DNA of 62,974 nucleotides, filler included, from Stramenopiles sp. TOSAG23-2 (lineage: Eukaryota), in the NCBI GenBank assembly GCA_900128395.1. It is 21 parts of 21 records of this genome, joined end to end, with 100 filler letters (N's around TTAATTAATTAA, not from the genome) between each part and the next. Parts side by side here need not be neighbours in the genome. Positions count along the whole stretch, not along the records: positions 9,337 to 12,346 come from LT651410.1; 20 more parts are not named here. One strand, given 5' to 3'. Within the stretch, counting starts at the first letter, position 1, and every line of letters starts with the position of its first letter. A program made the position numbers and the translations under genes. This document shows positions 2,827 through 46,443 of this stretch, piece by piece. The notes below the pieces were generated by a model, which ran no database searches, was not told where the DNA came from, and saw only the letters and a program-made list of their open reading frames with translations.

Positions 2827-3013
2827 TTATTAATAACCGTGAAAATCAAATTATAATTCAAATGTTTTTTGTCAAAATTAAAACACACACACACGATCGT
2901 ATTTTTTTCTCTTTATTTCTTTGGTAAAACTTTCACTAATTTTCTTTTTGTTTTCTAATGCTTATAACAAGTAATAAAACAATTATTTTTTTTGAAACAT
3001 GGAAACAATCATT

Positions 3014-3113
3014 NNNNNNNNNNNNNNNNNNNNNNNNNNNNNNNNNNNNNNNNNNNNTTAATTAATTAANNNNNNNNNNNNNNNNNNNNNNNNNNNNNNN
3101 NNNNNNNNNNNNN
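3014..3113. other. Artificial contig-joining linker (N44-TTAATTAATTAA-N44); first of 20 such linkers, about every 3.1 kb
   Basis: The same 100-nt spacer, with stops in all six frames, recurs 20 times; intervening contigs fall in length from 3013 to 2983 bp. Confidence 0.98.
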
Positions 3114-3604
3114 ATTACCTAAACAAGTATATCACCAGATTAGTAGAATATACAAATATTTGTATAATATCAATATATATTATGCATTAATTTTTAAAAA
3201 TATATATTTCCGCGTGTATATACATCTTTTAATAAATTAAATTATTAATAGTAGTTTTTTGTGCATTGGTTATTAAAAAATGAACACTTTAACTTGTTGT
3301 TATTGTTGCTGGCCGCCCATCCAGCTGGCCAGCCTACGAACGAAGTCGTAGTGTAAAGATCCGAACCGTCGTACTTTGTATGATAATATTTTTATAATTG
3401 ATGTGTTTAAAATTTAAAAGTGTTATAATAATTTTAGTTCCCGTGTTAAATATCGTAAACTAAATTAAATTTTTAATATTATATGAGATGCCATTTTAGA
3501 TACGACTGGTATATATATTGGGGTAAGGAATAAAAAATTAATATACGCGTACATTTACATTTTATATTAATTATTTTTATTTTAAATATATACGACGACA
3601 CTCA

Positions 3605-4858
3605 TCAATTCTTTTCTTCATCATCGCCACCACCACTACTATTATCATTGCTTTCAACAGTAGTATCATTATTTGCTGCAGCTGCATTTGCTTGTTCCTC
3701 TTCAGCTTTTGCTTTTGCTTCTGCTTCTTTTCGAGCAATTTGTCTTAATCTACTACGTTCAATTGCCTTTGCTTTTCTTTCCGCTTTTTCCTTTTGTAAT
3801 CGTGCTTTTAAATCAATTTCTGGTTCCAATGTGGATGCATAAACAATATTTTCCTTTTCACGTTTATCAACAATATAAGATACTAATGAACGCAAACATG
3901 CTTCGAAACTAATTTTTTTTTTACCAGATTTATATTCCTCAAATAAATCATTTCGTTCAAGTACTTTTCGAATTTGATATATATTCAATTTCGGTGCATT
4001 TTTCACAGTAATATCTTCAATATTTGGTATTTCATTTTTACCAAGTTCATTGATATTAACATTCGTATTGCGTTTTAAATTAGCACCTACTGGTTGCCCA
4101 GCAAGTAAATGTTTTTGTGTTTCTTTATCAATCAATTCATCTTTTACTACTTGCTTTTTTTTTTCATCATCCTCATCCCCAACTTTACTTGTATCTTCTT
4201 TAATACGATCAGATATCCACTCATCGCTTAAATTTTTTGGTGACATTTCTTCTTGTTGCTTTTGCTTTTCTTTCTTCTCCTTCTTGTCCTTATTAGTATT
4301 ATTGTCACCATCTCCTTTCAATAATTCACGTATAACTTTTGCAAGCATTTCTTCAAATAATTTATACGCATTTTCCCATTCTTTTTCTTCCAACAATTTT
4401 CTTTGATCCATTTGTTGTCTCAATTCGTACATGGACCATCCCTCAATTTCTTGAAATGTCAATGCAAATGGTTTAGTCAATCTCTTCCCAATTTCAACAG
4501 CTTTTTCTTCTTCTGTGATCATTTTCTTTTCCGTTGTTGGTTTTTCATCTTTTTCGTTGTTATTATTATTACTAGCTTCTTCCTCCTCCTCCTTCTCCTT
4601 TGCAATATCTTCTTTTTCTTTTTGATATCCTTCGACCCACATTTTCGTTTCTAAATCTTTAAATTTTTTCCATATCTTTTCATCCTCTTCATCGTAAACA
4701 CCACGCCTTTCTAACTCTTCCTTTAGCTCTAGCACAGAACATTTCGAAATATTTAATATAGTAATTTGTTTCTTTTCTTTTTTTAAATTAATTCCATATT
4801 TTGAAACAATTTCATCTGCTGATAATAATCTATCCGTCTTTGGTATGATAGATGTCAT
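3605..4858 (-). CDS. Charged coiled-coil protein with three SAP/HeH-like motifs
   Basis: CSVLELKEELERRG, WSMYELRQQMDQRK, LNIYQIRKVLERND; first ATG at 4858. Confidence 0.65.
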   Translation of the reverse strand: MTSIIPKTDRLLSADEIVSKYGINLKKEKKQITILNISKCSVLELKEELERRGVYDEEDEKIWKKFKDLETKMWVEGYQKEKEDIAKEKEEEEEASNNNNNEKDEKPTTEKKMITEEEKAVEIGKRLTKPFALTFQEIEGWSMYELRQQMDQRKLLEEKEWENAYKLFEEMLAKVIRELLKGDGDNNTNKDKKEKKEKQKQQEEMSPKNLSDEWISDRIKEDTSKVGDEDDEKKKQVVKDELIDKETQKHLLAGQPVGANLKRNTNVNINELGKNEIPNIEDITVKNAPKLNIYQIRKVLERNDLFEEYKSGKKKISFEACLRSLVSYIVDKREKENIVYASTLEPEIDLKARLQKEKAERKAKAIERSRLRQIARKEAEAKAKAEEEQANAAAANNDTTVESNDNSSGGGDDEEKN

Positions 4859-9336: not shown

Positions 9337-9779
9337 TGTTACCGAGTATTTTGGGGAAAGATCAGTTACCAAGTATACTATATTTATTGCTAGACGGTAA
9401 TAAAATCCCACAAAATGGTGGGACAAACATTGAGACTTTATCTTCAAATCTTGCTTCTCTTGGTTTAGCAAGATGTGGATTGAAAATATTACCATCATAT
9501 TTAACAGACTTTAAATATTTGAAAAATTTAGATGCTCGAGATAACAATATAACCGAGGTTCCAAAAGAAGTTACAAATTGGATCAAAGATAGAGGGATTG
9601 AGGCATATTTTTCAGGGAACAAATTGCTGTGTGAAAATGATGCAGAAAATTATGGTAAATATTGTGAAGAAATATGTAGTAAATATTGTTGGTCGAAGGA
9701 TGGTAATAAGGATAATTCTTGTAATCCAGATTGTAATTCTAAAGAGTGTGATTATGATGGGGGGGAATGTGAGTTTTAA
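9337..9779 (+). CDS. C-terminus of an LRR protein ending in an LNR/Notch-like Cys module (copy 1)
   Basis: LxxLxLxxN-type repeats, GNKLLC cap, C...DNSCNPDCNSKECDYDGGEC. Confidence 0.8.
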
Positions 9780-9948
9780 AAAAAAACGAAAGTAACTCTA
9801 GAAACGGGAAGTATTTTTTATTATTATTTTTACGAAGAAGTACATATGTCATATATAATATATATGTATCATACGAGTAGTATGCATAATTATTGTTTTA
9901 TGATAGAGTATAATGTTTCCCCCTATCGTATTCATAAGCAGATTACTA

Positions 9949-12346
9949 TCAACACGCGCCACCACCATTCTGCAATAAACGTCTTCTCCTTTGATTACCA
10001 CTTTTCTTGTTGAAATATTTTAGAGATTCAAATAAACGCCTTCTTCTCCTCACCTTGTCATCACAACCTTTCTCATCATTGTCACCATGAATACAGTTGA
10101 CACCAACTTTATAGTGCATTATCCCCTCATCATTAAGATACACCGCCAATTGGATACGACGATTCAGTTTGCGGTCTTGATCACCATCGAGCTTTTTACA
10201 ATTCTTTTCTTTATCACAGCCGTTTGCCTCATATACTTTTCTATTCTCCCAACCTTTTCCAAAACCTTCACACGGATTTGGTTTGCTCAACATATGACAC
10301 AATGTACCCTTCTTTCCATTATTAAAATATTTGCCAGCATATTTGGAATTTTTTACTTCTTTTCCGTTTTTACAATTAAATGTATAACTAGATTTTTTAC
10401 CGTTTACTTTTATATTAGTTATATCGATAAATTCAAGTAACTTATGCTCCACATCATCATTGGCAACACCTTGTTTCAAACAATTATCTGAGTCCGTTCC
10501 ATCGCATTTCCTTTCCCTTGGAAAATAAAACTTGGTATCCCATGGTCCATATGTACCTTTCCGATTCCATCCAGGAGTTCCTTCGATTAGACATTTTCCA
10601 CCATTATCAAAACCGCATTTTTTGTATTCCAAGTTACTGTCTTTAATTTCTTGGCATATACTATTGCATTTGTCATGACTGTTACCACATGGAATATCAA
10701 CAAGTTTATTATCATTTTTAATAATATAGCAAGTTTTTTCATTTTCAGGTGTAGGTTTATATTGATATCTTTTCTTCTTTCTATACTTCTTCTTCTTCTT
10801 CTTTTTATCTTCTTTATCCTTTTTCTTCTTATTATTATCCTTCTTCTTTTTATCTTTTTTATTCTTTTTCTTTTTCTTCTTGTTATTACCCTTCTTCTTT
10901 TTATCCTTCTTCTTCTTGTTCTTCTTCTTGTTATTACCCTTCTTGTTCTTCTTCTTGCTATTACCCTTCTTCTTTTTATCCTTCTTCTTCTTTTTCTTCT
11001 TGCCTTTTATTCGTTTCTTTTTCTTATCGCCATCTTTTTTCTTCTTGTCTCCTATTCGTTTCATTATTCGTTTCTTTTTCTTATCGTTATCCTTCTTCTT
11101 CTTTTTCTTCTTGCCTTTTATTTGTTTCTTTTTCTTATCGCCATCTTTTTTCTTCTTGTCTCCTATTCGTTTCATTATTCGTTTCTTTTTCTTATCGTTA
11201 TCCTTCTTCTTCTTTTTCTTCTTGCCTTTTATTTGTTTCTTTTTCTTATCGCCATCTTTTTTCTTCTTGTCTCCTATTCGTTTCATTATTCGTTTCTTTT
11301 TCTTATCGTTATCTTTTTTCTTCTTGCCTCTTGTGAGTTTCATTATCCGTTTCTGTTTCTTACCGTTATCTTTTTTCTTCTTGTCTCTTATTCGTTTCGG
11401 TTTCTTATCATCTTTTTTCTTCTTTTCCATTCGTTTCTTTCTCTTAGGTCTTGGGCTGGATCTTGGGCGAGGCCTTGGGTTCAAGAGACGACGAGGCCTT
11501 GGCTTTGGCCTTCGTTTCTTTTTCTTATCGTTATCTTTTTTCTTCTTGCCTTTTATTCGTTTCTTTTTCTTATCGTCATCTTTTTTCTTCTTGCCTCTTG
11601 GCTTTGGCCTTGGCTTTGGCCTTCGTCGTGGCTTTGGGCGGGGCTTTGGGCGAGGCCTTGGCTTTGGCCTTCGTCGTGGCTTTGGGCGTGGCCTTGGTCG
11701 TGGCCTTGGGCGGGGCCTTGGGCGGGGCCTTGGGCGGGGCCTTGGGCTTGGTCGTGGCCTTGGTCGTGGCCTTGGGCTTGGTCGTGGCCTTGGGCGGGGC
11801 CTTGGGCGGGGCCTTGGGCTTGGTCGTGGCCTTGGGCGGGGCCTTGGGCTTGGTCGTGGCCTTGGGCGAGGCCTTGGGCGAGGTCTTTTTTTCCTTTTCT
11901 TACCGCGGCGTCTTGTGGCTTTTTGACGATTCAGTAGTAATATTTCACGACTCTTCGTTTCTAAAAAACTTTTGGCCTCAGCATCTCTTCCTGAACAAAT
12001 ATCTTCTACCTTCTGTTCTATTGTCTGATCATGGTCGTGTTCATCTTCTTCTTCTTCTTCTTCTACATTGTCCTCGTGATCACAATCTTGCTGAACTTTT
12101 TCTACTTGTTCGCTGGATAATCCCTCTCCCTGCAAATATTGTTCAATGTCAGTTTCACTGGCATCAGGGTGTTCTTCCAACATTTCTTTTAAATGTTTGC
12201 ATGCCTTATCACTATCAAAATCACTCTCATCTTCTTCTTCTTCCTCCTCCTCCTTCTCTTCTTCTTCTTCTTCTTCTTCTACATTGTCCTTGTGATCACA
12301 ATCTTGCTGAACTTTTTCTACTTGTTCGCTGGATAATCCCTCTCCC
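9949..12346 (-). CDS. Polycationic Arg-Pro/Lys-rich protein with acidic N-terminal repeats and a C-terminal 16-Cys domain (variant A); 5' truncated
   Basis: Open frame to the contig edge; near-identical second copy at 44064-46443 preserves the frame across indels. Confidence 0.85.
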
Positions 12347-18891: not shown

Positions 18892-20088
18892 TTAATACTC
18901 TAGACTTTCATTTTTATCGTTGTCATCTTCATCATCTTCAGCATCATCGTCTTCCTCCTCATTTTGATGATATTTTACCCATGGAAAATCTTCAATATTA
19001 TAATTAAATGATGGAAAAATTTGTGTTAAAGCTTGTAAGCTATACATTGCTGCTGGAATATTCCAAGAGTTGCCAACTATTTTATGTATTCTTTTGTTTG
19101 ACTCATTTGTATCATCACGTAGACATTTAAAATGATCAGATGGATATCCCATTAGCTCGCCTCGCTGTTCCGCATCTAGTTCAATTTCTTTTGCTTTTGC
19201 TGTTGCACTTTTACACCATATTCCACTACTTTCTGTGCTGGACGTTTTTGAGCTAAGTAATCCAGTGAGATTGCCAGTAAGACGCCAAATATAATCACCA
19301 TTGTTGTCTTGCTGTTTCCAGCTTTCATCTTTATCACTGGCGCTAAGCCAATGTTTCATCCAAGTTTCTTTAATGCTTGCTACTTTTTTTCTACCACTAT
19401 ATTTTATATTGAATGCACCAAATGTATTAGGAAACGGTATATTTGTGGCAAACCATCTATTCCGTTTATCTGGTGCAAAATGGCGTGAATCCAACTTGTA
19501 ACTTATACAGCATGCATTTGTTGCAAACCTGTTCATTCTTTCTAAATATGTAGATTCCGGTATTACATTTTCCATAAAGATATATGGATGATTCGATTCC
19601 TCTTTGATAGATTTATTAAATTCTTTTGCAAGTAAAATAAAATCAATGCAATCAAAAAACACACTTGATTTACCTTTTGACAATCCGGTCCTATTTGCAT
19701 TTACTCTTGACAAATCTTGACAGGGCGATCCAAATGTTATTAGATTGATACTGCATTTATAATCATTTGCCATAATATATTTTAAATTATCTTTTGTTAC
19801 ATTTGAAACGTCACCTAATGCTCTTGATTGAATGTTGTGCTTATTACAGAGATCAGAAATTACTTTGATGCAATCACCATCAATTTCACTAAAAAGATAA
19901 AGATGAACTTTTATCTTTAATCTAAGCAGACAAAGTAAAGCAGCACCACTACCTGCACAAAGATCTGCCACTACAATTCCTTTGGATGATTTCTTATCAC
20001 AATAGAATTTTCTTCTCAAATCCCATATATCTTCATCAGCAAAAATTTCCACCGGAGATAATTTTCTACTCCTTCGTCTTAGGTGTAT
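18892..20088 (-). CDS. DNMT3-like C5-cytosine DNA methyltransferase, catalytic domain
   Basis: Motifs I (DLCAGSG), II (SEID), IV (GSPCQDLS..N..R.GL), VI (MENV), VIII (RNRWFATNIP), IX, X (GNSWNIP); start uncertain, TATAG acceptor at 20089. Confidence 0.88.
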   Translation of the reverse strand: MHLRRRSRKLSPVEIFADEDIWDLRRKFYCDKKSSKGIVVADLCAGSGAALLCLLRLKIKVHLYLFSEIDGDCIKVISDLCNKHNIQSRALGDVSNVTKDNLKYIMANDYKCSINLITFGSPCQDLSRVNANRTGLSKGKSSVFFDCIDFILLAKEFNKSIKEESNHPYIFMENVIPESTYLERMNRFATNACCISYKLDSRHFAPDKRNRWFATNIPFPNTFGAFNIKYSGRKKVASIKETWMKHWLSASDKDESWKQQDNNGDYIWRLTGNLTGLLSSKTSSTESSGIWCKSATAKAKEIELDAEQRGELMGYPSDHFKCLRDDTNESNKRIHKIVGNSWNIPAAMYSLQALTQIFPSFNYNIEDFPWVKYHQNEEEDDDAEDDEDDNDKNESLEY

Positions 20089-43451: not shown

Positions 43452-43894
43452 TGTTACCGAGTATTTTGGGGAAAGATCAGTTACCAAGTATACTATATTT
43501 ATTGCTAGACGGTAATAAAATCCCACAAAATGGTGGGACAAACATTGAGACTTTATCTTCAAATCTTGCTTCTCTTGGTTTAGCAAGATGTGGATTGAAA
43601 ATATTACCATCATATTTAACAGACTTTAAATATTTGAAAAATTTAGATGCTCGAGATAACAATATAACCGAGGTTCCAAAAGAAGTTACAAATTGGATCA
43701 AAGATAGAGGGATTGAGGCATATTTTTCAGGGAACAAATTGCTGTGTGAAAATGATGCAGAAAATTATGGTAAATATTGTGAAGAAATATGTAGTAAATA
43801 TTGTTGGTCGAAGGATGGTAATAAGGATAATTCTTGTAATCCAGATTGTAATTCTAAAGAGTGTGATTATGATGGGGGGGAATGTGAGTTTTAA
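43452..43894 (+). CDS. C-terminus of the LRR/LNR-like protein (copy 2, protein-identical to 9337-9779)
   Basis: Same translation as copy 1. Confidence 0.8.
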
Positions 43895-44063
43895 AAAAAA
43901 ACGAAAGTAACTCTAGAAACGGGAAGTATTTTTTATTATTATTTTTACGAAGAAGTACATATGTCATATATAATATATATGTATCATACGAGTAGTATGC
44001 ATAATTATTGTTTTATGATAGAGTATAATGTTTCCCCCTATCATATTCATAAGCACATTACTA

Positions 44064-46443
44064 TCAACACGCGCCACCACCATTCTGCAATAAACGTCTT
44101 CTCCTTTGATTACCACTTTTCTTGTTGAAATATTTTAGAGATTCAAATAAACGCCTTCTTCTCCTCACCTTGTCATCACAACCTTTCTCATTATTGTCAC
44201 CATTAATACAGTTGACACCAACTTTATAGTGCATTATCCCCTCATCATTAAGATACACCGCCAATTGGATACGACGATTCAGTTTGCGGTCATGATCACC
44301 ATCGAGCTTTTTACAATTCTTTTCTTTATCACAACCGTTTGCCTCATACACTTTTGCAAACCTCTCACCTCTTGCAAAACCCTCACACGGATTTGGTTTG
44401 CTCAACATATGACACAATGTACCTTTCTTTCCATTGAGAAAATACTTCTTACTATTTTTGCCAATTAAGAATCCATTTCTACAATTAAATTTATACGAAG
44501 ATGTACTATCTTCTTCGTTTACTTTTATATTGGTTATATCGATAAATTCAAGTAACTTATGCTCCACATCATCATTGGCAACACCTCGTTGCAAACAATT
44601 ATCGTCATCCTTGCCCCTTCCTTTGCAATCCTTTTCCTTTGGAAAATAAAATTCGGTATGCCATGGTCCATATGTACCTTTCTGCATCGATCCAGGATTT
44701 CCTTTCGTCATACATTTTCTACCATTATCAAAACCGCATTTTTTGTATTCCAAGTTACTGTCTTTAATTTCTTGGCATATACTATTGCATTTGTCATGAC
44801 TGTTACCACATGGAATATCAACAAGTTTATTATCATTTTTAATAATATAGCAAGTTTTTTCATTTTCAGGTGTATTACCCTTCTTCTTTTGATCCTTTTT
44901 CTTCTTGTTCTTACGTTTCTTCGTTTTATCCTTCTTCTTCTTGTTCTTCTTCTTCTTCTTGTTATTACCCTTCTTCTTTTTATTACCCTTCTTCTTTTTA
45001 TCCTTCTTCTTCTTGTTCTTCTTCTTGTTATTACCCTTCTTGTTCTTCTTCTTGCTATTACCCTTCTTCTTTTTATCCTTCTTCTTCTTTTTCTTCTTGC
45101 CTTTTATTCGTTTCTTTTTCTTATCGCCATCTTTTTTCTTCTTGTCTCCTATTCGTTTCATTATTCGTTTCTTTTTCTTATCGTTATCCTTCTTCTTCTT
45201 TTTCTTCTTGCCTTTTATTTGTTTCTTTTTCTTATCGCCATCTTTTTTCTTCTTGTCTCCTATTCGTTTCATTATTCGTTTCTTTTTCTTATCGTTATCC
45301 TTCTTCTTCTTTTTCTTCTTGCCTTTTATTTGTTTCTTTTTCTTATCGCCATCTTTTTTCTTCTTGTCTCCTATTCGTTTCATTATTCGTTTCTTTTTCT
45401 TATCGTTATCTTTTTTCTTCTTGCCTCTTGTGAGTTTCATTATCCGTTTCTGTTTCTTACCGTTATCTTTTTTCTTCTTGTCTCTTATTCGTTTCGGTTT
45501 CTTATCATCTTTTTTCTTCTTTTCCATTCGTTTCTTTCTCTTAGGTCTTGGGCTGGATCTTGGGCGAGGCCTTGGGTTCAAGAGACGACGAGGCCTTGGC
45601 TTTGGCCTTCGTTTCTTTTTCTTATCGTTATCTTTTTTCTTCTTGCCTTTTATTCGTTTCTTTTTCTTATCGTCATCTTTTTTCTTCTTGCCTCTTGGCT
45701 TTGGCCTTGGCTTTGGCCTTCGTCGTGGCTTTGGGCGGGGCTTTGGGCGAGGCCTTGGCTTTGGCCTTCGTCGTGGCTTTGGGCGTGGCCTTGGTCGTGG
45801 CCTTGGGCGGGGCCTTGGGCGGGGCCTTGGGCGGGGCCTTGGGCTTGGTCGTGGCCTTGGTCGTGGCCTTGGGCTTGGTCGTGGCCTTGGGCGGGGCCTT
45901 GGGCGGGGCCTTGGGCTTGGTCGTGGCCTTGGGCGGGGCCTTGGGCTTGGTCGTGGCCTTGGGCGAGGCCTTGGGCGAGGTCTTTTTTTCCTTTTCTTAC
46001 CGCGGCGTCTTGTGGCTTTTTGACGATTCAGTAGTAATATTTCACGACTCTTCGTTTCTAAAAAACTTTTGGCCTCAGCATCTCTTCCTGAACAAATATC
46101 TTCTACCTTCTGTTCTATTGTCTGATCATGGTCGTGTTCATCTTCTTCTTCTTCTTCTTCTACATTGTCCTCGTGATCACAATCTTGCTGAACTTTTTCT
46201 ACTTGTTCGCTGGATAATCCCTCTCCCTGCAAATATTGTTCAATGTCAGTTTCACTGGCATCAGGGTGTTCTTCCAACATTTCTTTTAAATGTTTGCATG
46301 CCTTATCACTATCAAAATCACTCTCATCTTCTTCTTCTTCCTCCTCCTCCTTCTCTTCTTCTTCTTCTTCTTCTTCTACATTGTCCTTGTGATCACAATC
46401 TTGCTGAACTTTTTCTACTTGTTCGCTGGATAATCCTTCTCCC
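44064..46443 (-). CDS. Polycationic Arg-Pro/Lys-rich protein with a C-terminal 16-Cys domain (variant B); 5' truncated
   Basis: Allele or paralogue of 9949-12346, 18 nt shorter, all Cys conserved. Confidence 0.85.

Follow-up and report, generated by a model that had tools for sequence, protein, structure and literature searches.

How can two contigs of one assembly be alignable from their first base to their last and yet be deeply diverged in a few loops of a single protein domain? This question is raised by a locus encoding a cysteine-rich protein in Stramenopiles sp. TOSAG23-2 (assembly GCA_900128395.1). The window, as we call the whole stretch of 62,974 bases that was analysed, is made up of 21 separate contigs of about 3 kb each, arranged from longest to shortest and separated by N/TTAATTAATTAA/N spacers; because it is such a concatenation, features that cross a spacer are not real. 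The contigs at 9337-12346 (A, 3010 nucleotides, nt) and 43452-46443 (B, 2992 nt) are the sole similar pair among the 21, and since no second duplicated pair occurs in the window, the assembly is not generally split into haplotypes. Each of the two carries the 3' end of a gene with leucine-rich repeats (LRR) and an LNR/Notch-type module, which converges on the gene of a protein whose C-terminal domain (the Cys domain) contains 16 cysteines. The account that we favour, tentatively and with slightly less than even confidence, is that A and B represent two haplotypes of a single locus, in which a secreted binding domain carries a modular, recombining loop polymorphism under balancing selection. 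We are far more confident that the loop forms have been reassorted than we are of that account as a whole; allelism, selection and function are held less firmly.

Divergence between versions A and B

Aligned over their full length, A and B differ in 152 of 3016 alignment columns. Four clusters, together spanning 415 columns, hold 146 of these differences, and the other 2601 columns hold only six, two of them intergenic, three in the C-terminal part of the domain and one at position 12340. A uniform spread of differences could not have yielded such clustering. Three of the clusters cover four patches within the Cys domain, and the fourth is the domain-proximal end of the adjoining lysine-rich tract, where the columns differ through repeat rearrangement (coordinates in Table 2). 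A preceding interpretation of this DNA, made from the bases alone and referred to below as the sequence-only reading, had described the contigs as homologous from end to end, and this was borne out: the LRR/LNR gene end (9337-9779 in A, 43452-43894 in B) has no differing column, its visible 146 codons being identical, and the spacer has two single-nucleotide polymorphisms (SNPs). It was also right about the four variable patches and the peptide strings that it quoted for them. The span of 10070-10600 that it gave does contain the variable part, which is however narrower (10177-10599), and its statement that most of the repeat tracts are identical is true of the Pro-Arg tract but not of the end of the Lys tract at 10754-10882, which is strongly different.

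Within the Cys domain, 36 substitutions and eight gap columns separate the two proteins, and they fall in the four patches and at three single sites. As had been noticed from the sequence, all 16 cysteines are kept: every one of them stands in an aligned column in A, in B and in a related locus, L001, found on a contig of the JGI collection.

Synonymous and non-synonymous differences between A and B were counted by the Nei-Gojobori method, and the resulting divergences per site (dS and dN, with omega as the ratio dN/dS) are given in Table 1. Silent divergence in the loops is about 100-fold that of the flanks, indicating that the common ancestor of the loop segments is far older than that of the surrounding DNA. 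By these codon counts purifying selection clearly acts on the framework of the domain, and the loops, taken together, evolve at a rate close to neutral. The blocks between the patches, which had been called invariant, are so at the protein level, where no non-synonymous difference occurs, but three synonymous differences are found in their DNA. The claim that synonymous changes are few did not survive counting, since the domain has 17 of them beside 54 non-synonymous ones, and dS reaches 0.43 in the patches.

Table 1. Nei-Gojobori counts and divergences between versions A and B by region
Region	Codons	Synonymous	Non-synonymous	dS	dN	omega
Upstream of the domain	487	1	0	0.0036	0	
Whole Cys domain	264	17	54	0.126	0.089	
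Variable core	119	15	51	0.265	0.20	0.76
All four patches	67	12	51	0.43	0.40	0.92
Patch 1	13	1	10	0.128	0.431	
Patch 2	23	3.75	13.25	0.43	0.28	
Patch 3	24	7.25	17.75	1.19	0.38	
Patch 4	7	0	10	0	1.207	
Domain codons outside patches	158	5	3	0.061	0.008	about 0.13
Blocks between patches	50	3	0	0.11	0	

Loop forms in other assemblies and runs

The collection of further variants had been proposed as a check. When they were sought outside this assembly, other assemblies and sequencing runs were found to carry the same patch forms, and the variation is real. The most informative single relative is L001. Outside the patches, where A equals B, it is mostly 91-98% identical to both. In patch 3 it has 97-100% nucleotide identity to A (codon windows 121-143) and 77-87% to B; in patch 4, by contrast, the identity is 97.8% to B and 73-76% to A, and in patch 1 L001 is nearer to B than to A. 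Among the informative sites, 37 group A with L001 and 27 group B with L001, and they are arranged in 20 runs along the sequence (three-sequence runs test, permutation p = 0.0011). Because dS between A and B in the patches (0.43) is higher than the background dS to L001 (0.11-0.16), the patch forms predate the split from L001.

Relatives were then typed by scoring them at the columns that discriminate A from B. By this cassette typing L001 is 1B-2A-3A-4B. In the protein P0002 a B-type patch 3 (17/17 sites) is joined to an A-type patch 4 (4/6), in P0025 an A-type patch 1 (5/8) is joined to a B-type patch 2 (9/12), and P0022 has a hybrid patch 4. P0001, the product of an independent contig, is A-like at all four patches (6/8, 10/12, 13/17 and 4/6 sites, respectively). 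All four possible combinations were found for patches 1 and 2, and likewise for patches 3 and 4.

A similar picture was obtained with Logan assembled contigs of four runs, which were aligned to positions 9337-10790. Two of the runs, X1 and X3, hold B-type unitigs (9924-10308 and 10418-10753) on either side of a bubble at patch 3 that has both an A arm, with contig depths of 6.9 in X1 and 2.7 in X3, and a B arm, with depths of 15.7 and 11.5. B-type flanks together with the A arm would make a third haplotype, which is present in neither contig of the window. In X4, a run from a different study, an A-like piece of patch 3 with six other letters was found along with a contig that diverges across the same 80 nt; these two forms have contig depths of 3.3 and 3.55, contig depth being, here as in X1 and X3, not a frequency. 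Gaps in the coverage by the Logan contigs, among them the AT-rich spacer and the lack of an exact copy of the LRR flank in X1 and X3, were given no weight. We also observed that the B-type contigs, compared with A, have paired +1/-1 indels at 10240/10251 in patch 4 and at 10581/10586 in patch 1. Compensated frameshifts were considered as the origin of these two patches and rejected, as the shifted alignment was, by eye, hardly better than the ungapped one.

Judged on sequence comparison, the patch forms are old segments that have been reassorted by recombination or gene conversion, and not recent mutations. Old, reshuffled segments of this kind would fit balancing selection, but they would equally fit exchange among paralogues.

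Competing accounts of the two versions

On the account that we favour, the locus would belong to an uncultured marine eukaryote with AT-rich, intron-poor DNA, and A and B would be two natural haplotypes of this one locus, both of which the assembler kept. For each of the four loop segments, two or more deeply diverged forms would exist in the ocean, and homologous recombination or gene conversion among alleles, possibly also among paralogues, would shuffle these forms into many combinations. Balancing, frequency-dependent selection acting on a binding surface would maintain the polymorphism. The Cys domain would serve as an extracellular recognition or adhesion module, which the polycationic tracts may tether to a negatively charged surface.

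Several observations weigh against this account. Omega does not exceed one overall (0.76 in the core, 0.92 in the patches), so that the argument for selection has to be built on the depth and the reassortment of the forms and not on a codon test; it is above one only in patches 1 and 4, which together have one synonymous and 20 non-synonymous differences (21 differences). Computing dN/dS by region, as the sequence-only reading had advised, gave no demonstration of the diversifying selection that it had suggested. It had regarded dN/dS below one with saturated dS as contrary to its proposal, and what was found is divided, patch 3 being near saturation in dS and patches 1 and 4 having omega above one. 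When A and B alone are compared, the three synonymous inter-patch differences (dS 0.11) would be compatible with the simpler view of a single diverged region some 0.4 kb long in place of four separate ones. In the rest of the family the variability of the patch columns exceeds that of the other columns only modestly (mean pairwise difference 0.422 for 73 columns versus 0.342 for 190; Mann-Whitney p = 0.025). The family is multi-copy: a second member begins 1 kb downstream in L001, and X1 and X3 hold another LRR/LNR gene with 26 differences in 449 nt. Among the rows listed for X1 and X3, there are no A-type letters at patches 4 and 2 and only two indel rows at patch 1; the comparison was one of assembled contigs. 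Lastly, the fold model of the domain is of middling confidence (mean predicted local distance difference test score, pLDDT, 65.9) and gave no fold match above noise.

Since the family is multi-copy, paralogues could be the partners of exchange, or they could be A and B themselves. In the latter case a segmental duplication of at least 3 kb would recently have occurred within one genome, and conversion would homogenise the flanks while the loops escape it or are overwritten. The additional family member in L001 and the further LRR/LNR-family pair in X1 and X3 agree with such an origin, as does the finding of two patch 3 forms in each of X1 and X3, runs that carry the label of a single organism; moreover, A and B share patch forms with L001, from which they mostly differ by 2-9% elsewhere, as inter-locus conversion would yield. 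However, the spacer and the repeat arrays are near-identical too, with six differences in 2601 columns, so that the duplication would have to be very recent or the conversion very efficient and halting precisely at the loops, and the window is without any other duplicated contig pair. We hold a paralogous origin to be rather unlikely. It is also conceivable that neither balancing nor diversifying selection is at work: the loops may be weakly constrained, and one or a few recombinations may have imported some 0.4 kb of diverged sequence, with another strain, a cryptic species or a paralogue as the donor, purifying selection on the framework then creating the patchy look. A near-neutral omega of 0.92 in the patches would be expected in that case, the dS values of 0.11 between patches and 0.27 in the core would allow the whole core to be one diverged tract, the excess variability of the patch columns in other members is modest (p = 0.025), and diverged donors are available, related sequence at 80-99% identity being found in many marine metagenomes. 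Against an imported tract, breakpoints lie between every adjacent pair of patches in independent sequences, both forms of patch 3 co-occur in runs from two studies (P1 and P3), patches 1 and 4 combine 20 non-synonymous differences with one synonymous, and the patch forms outlast the split from L001; we judge it unlikely.

Even with real variants, A and B could be paths through a multi-strain assembly graph, and their patch combinations and duplicated flanks would then not be real molecules. Graph junctions would give the shared start and end bases and the far end within an internal repeat of 90 bp, and the combination seen in X1 and X3, B with an A-type patch 3, occurs in neither contig. But X1 and X3 carry the B-type patches 1 and 2 on one unitig (10418-10753), the independent contig of P0001 encodes a protein that is A-like throughout, and the conserved blocks between patches, at 40-110 nt, are within reach of reads and read pairs, which makes an artefact highly improbable. 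The caveat of an assembly bubble attached to the sequence-only reading is fair as far as the phase of the patches in each contig is concerned, for this rests on assembled contigs, and it does not extend to the variation itself, which is found in other assemblies. A bolder proposal would be that the Cys-domain gene and the LRR/LNR gene that converges on it encode a ligand and its receptor, linked in one locus that acts in mating, kin or self/non-self recognition. We consider this very doubtful; if it were true, the four loops would be ancient, freely recombining specificities, and the locus would be a protist counterpart of plant S-loci or of fungal mating pheromone/receptor loci, built from an undescribed family and fold. 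For the toxin and antiviral-interface functions that had been suggested, no specific support was found.

The recognition systems of uncultured marine protists, whether they serve mating, the choice of prey or symbionts, or defence against viruses, are almost unknown. The present locus offers a concrete and widespread candidate for such a system, with a population signature that is testable with existing ocean metagenomes, and it adds an uncharacterised disulfide-rich domain, with no recognised fold match, that is joined to unusually long poly-Lys and Pro-Arg tracts. Should A and B prove to be ordinary variants of strains, or paralogues whose loops are unconstrained, what is left would be a fast-evolving orphan gene family.

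The protein, its family and its surroundings

The readable protein of A has 798 residues, in which acidic modules are followed by a Pro-Arg tract of about 100 amino acids (aa), a poly-Lys tract of about 280 aa and the 16-Cys C-terminal part of about 266-267 aa (Table 2). In translation the Lys tract contains 11% Asp plus Glu, and its repeat units are without Ser. Since the frame is open at the contig end (12346), the true N-terminus is missing from the contigs. That end falls inside a 90-bp internal repeat (12041-12130 and 12257-12346), which is why A and B stop at the same base. In the neighbouring gene end, the Notch/LNR model PF00066 of Pfam scored 21.9 bits against a cut-off of 21.2, and the LRR models scored under their cut-offs.

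Table 2. Features of the locus in versions A and B, in window coordinates
Feature	Position	Strand	Remarks
Leucine-rich repeats, then LNR/Notch-type Cys module; 3' end of neighbour gene	9337..9779	+	cut by contig start
AT-rich intergenic spacer between convergent genes	9780..9948	.	SNPs versus partner at 9928 and 9941
Version A 16-Cys C-terminal domain and tail RRRRLF...RRRRLLQNGGGAC	9949..10752	-	stop codon 9949-9951
Conserved tail	9952-9990		
Patch 4: GKGWENR (A) / ARGERFA (B)	10219..10267	-	13 differing columns, 13 substitutions
Patch 3: GK..KSSYTFNCKNGKEVKNSKYAGKYFN (A) / EEDSTSSYKFNCRNGFLIGKNSKKYFL (B)	10309..10417	-	41 differing columns, 41 substitutions; equal nucleotide length
Patches 2 and 1: in A, DTK..RERKCD..GTDSDNCLKQ and GKCLIEGTPGWNR	10472..10599	-	33 differing columns: 27 substitutions, 6 gap columns
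Poly-lysine tract, 54% K	10753..11595	-	111-nt (37-aa) tandem unit at 10976-11398
Variable, domain-proximal end of Lys tract	10754-10882		59 differing columns
Pro-Arg dipeptide tract, R 42%, P 46%	11596..11895	-	12-nt and 72-nt periods; same in partner
Acidic N-terminal modules, EEHPDASETD... repeated	11896..12346	-	isoelectric point 4.2; frame open to contig end
Version B of whole locus	43452..46443	-	LRR/LNR gene end 43452-43894 (+)
Version B Cys domain	44064-44873	-	variable segments 44334-44382, 44424-44532, 44587-44720
Version B variable end of Lys tract	44874-44979	-	

Relatives of the domain are few. A profile search of 1.84 billion representatives returned 18 proteins at E<=1e-3, 8 of them at E<=1e-30. 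A word-indexed search gave seven relatives among 1514 candidates, and a search for shorter proteins six among 14; no longer relatives were found among 2118 candidates. Of two scans of JGI stretches, the first found none in 130 and the second one in 187, which is locus L001, and the family was not found in viral contigs (0/171) or genome contigs (0/183). Its core blocks are LLEFIDITNIKV, TLCxxL, YEANGC and LNRRIQL, and by these blocks and the C-terminal tail A and B both belong to it. Sixteen of the 24 aligned family sequences, including members only about 30-40% identical to A, end in a tail RRRRLL-x-(N/S/D/K/R)G-xxx-C; the eight without it are six fragments that end earlier and two divergent proteins (P0012 and P0021). 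The conserved tail looks like a processing or sorting signal.

A hydrophobic N-terminal run of 15-21 residues was found in six family members that extend upstream of the domain (P0005, P0007, P0009, P0013, P0016 and P0019) and in ORF2 of L001 (ORF, open reading frame). P0009, with 499 aa, has the same architecture as A and B: a signal-like start, Arg/Pro/Ser repeats, an acidic EEHPEASEDD module that matches window positions 12088-12216 (E 1.25e-4), the Cys domain and an RRRKLL tail. From these signal-peptide-like starts of its relatives, and with its own N-terminus off the contig, the A/B protein would belong to the secretory pathway, possibly being cut at its poly-Arg motifs. The second family member of L001, at 2958-3683 (+), opens with a signal-peptide-like stretch, which is followed by an acidic part rich in His, an ICSG motif and the onset of Lys-rich repeats; its frame then closes and no Cys domain was found downstream. 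It may be either a paralogue that has been truncated or an intron-containing gene. The diverged LRR/LNR gene end of X1 and X3, aligned to 9337-9957, has contig depths of 200 and 74.7, respectively. It converges on a different family tail, RRRLLQSGAK..., which indicates that the pairing of an LRR/LNR gene with a Cys-family gene recurs at another locus or in a close relative.

The earlier description of the protein as undescribed held up: there was no Pfam match over the cut-off, no PDB or fold match, and only the 18 hits of the profile search. The best Pfam model, DUF7395, reached 14.6 bits against a gathering cut-off of 27 and was sub-threshold in 5 of 24 members. Thaumatin-like proteins have 16 conserved Cys, and this identity was considered and rejected, as no thaumatin profile matched any of the 24 members at E<=1; nor was a thaumatin chain among the fold-search matches listed, for which the query model had a mean pLDDT of 65.9. 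The PDB sequence profile search gave nothing at E<=10, and the ESM Atlas no usable match. AlphaFold2, run on the 24-sequence alignment, gave that mean pLDDT with a predicted template modelling score of 0.58 (a nine-sequence alignment had given a mean pLDDT of 44.3), and its model shows a mixed core and, at the N-terminus, a small subdomain of strand-strand-helix-strand order. Residues 45-59, 84-88 and 136-139, where the confidence of the model is low, coincide with patches 1-3. Foldseek searches with the domain model gave nothing above noise (best E 0.33 in PDB and 0.15 in BFVD), and neither did VIA wide (best Z 4.7, over residues 1-51 only) or pdb_via (best Z 3.2). Literature keyword searches returned no description of the family, which is weak evidence only. 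Taken together, an undescribed protein family with loop-limited polymorphism on a conserved Cys framework is supported by the sequences.

The behaviour of A and B was compared with that of known systems. In Plasmodium falciparum, DBLMSP1/2 alleles are described as combinations of discrete, recombinable modules between conserved blocks, some modules being shared across paralogues, with diversity peaking in the modules and the framework under purifying selection (PMC13088805). Such modular polymorphic antigens are the closest parallel to A and B in their recombinable modules and their framework under purifying selection. They differ from the present case in belonging to an unrelated family and fold, the modules here being short, loops of 7-30 residues on a domain with 16 Cys, and in coming from a parasite that faces adaptive immunity and not from an uncultured marine protist.

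The Brassica ligand SCR/SP11 is a small, secreted, defensin-like protein with 8 Cys, and its partner SRK is a co-polymorphic receptor kinase. Like SCR/SP11, the A/B protein is Cys-rich, with hypervariable loops on conserved Cys, what may be old alleles and a receptor-like gene next to it; convergence of an LRR/LNR gene with the family gene was observed at two separate loci. Unlike in SCR/SRK, the domain is 266 aa long, A and B do not differ in the 146 aa of the neighbour that are visible, and no kinase was seen there. Conotoxins are peptides of 10-40 residues from multigene venom families with omega far above one. An invariant Cys scaffold, variable inter-Cys loops and conserved flanks are common to them and the A/B protein, but here the loop omega is about 0.9 and the variation consists of reassorted old forms.

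Diatom silaffin precursors have a signal peptide, an acidic stretch, then highly basic repeats with Lys clusters, and motifs of the Arg-x-Leu type that mark endoproteolytic cleavage (PMC4557024). The A/B protein is silaffin-like in having an acidic part before Lys-rich repeats and R-x-L motifs, with signal-peptide-like starts in its relatives. It is unlike silaffins in that it has only three R-x-L[LF] motifs in 798 aa (residues 285, 768 and 787), none of which ends a 37-aa repeat, and in that its Lys repeats lack Ser, whereas silaffins have Ser-rich Lys clusters and no large Cys domain. No sequence similarity of silaffins to A or B was found. The A/B protein is not a member of the DBLMSP, S-locus ligand, conotoxin or silaffin families.

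As to the source, most contigs of the window have a guanine plus cytosine (GC) content of about 28-33%, and long intron-free ORFs encode Dcc1, DNA polymerase eta with a UBZ finger, a mitochondrial carrier, gelsolin repeats and further eukaryotic products, namely an RGS protein, a protein kinase and a piece of dynein heavy chain. Sequence words of the locus are indexed in 20 public runs of 9 studies, which are marine, seawater or aquatic metagenomes and two small runs. The dynein heavy chain, the other ORFs and the marine runs indicate that the source is an uncultured or little-studied flagellated marine eukaryote. Rfam and tRNA scans of the window gave no matches, and an Atlas search with the Dcc1 ORF returned clusters that are generically eukaryotic. 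The contig at 52721-55706 has a GC content of 42.5%, compared with the 28-33% of most others, and contains a 668-aa ORF with a weak Herpes_ori_bp-like match below cut-off (E 8.9e-4); it may be foreign or mobile DNA, or derive from another organism in the bin. At 18895-20052 (-), an ORF carries a C-5 cytosine DNA methylase domain (PF00145, E 6.6e-10).

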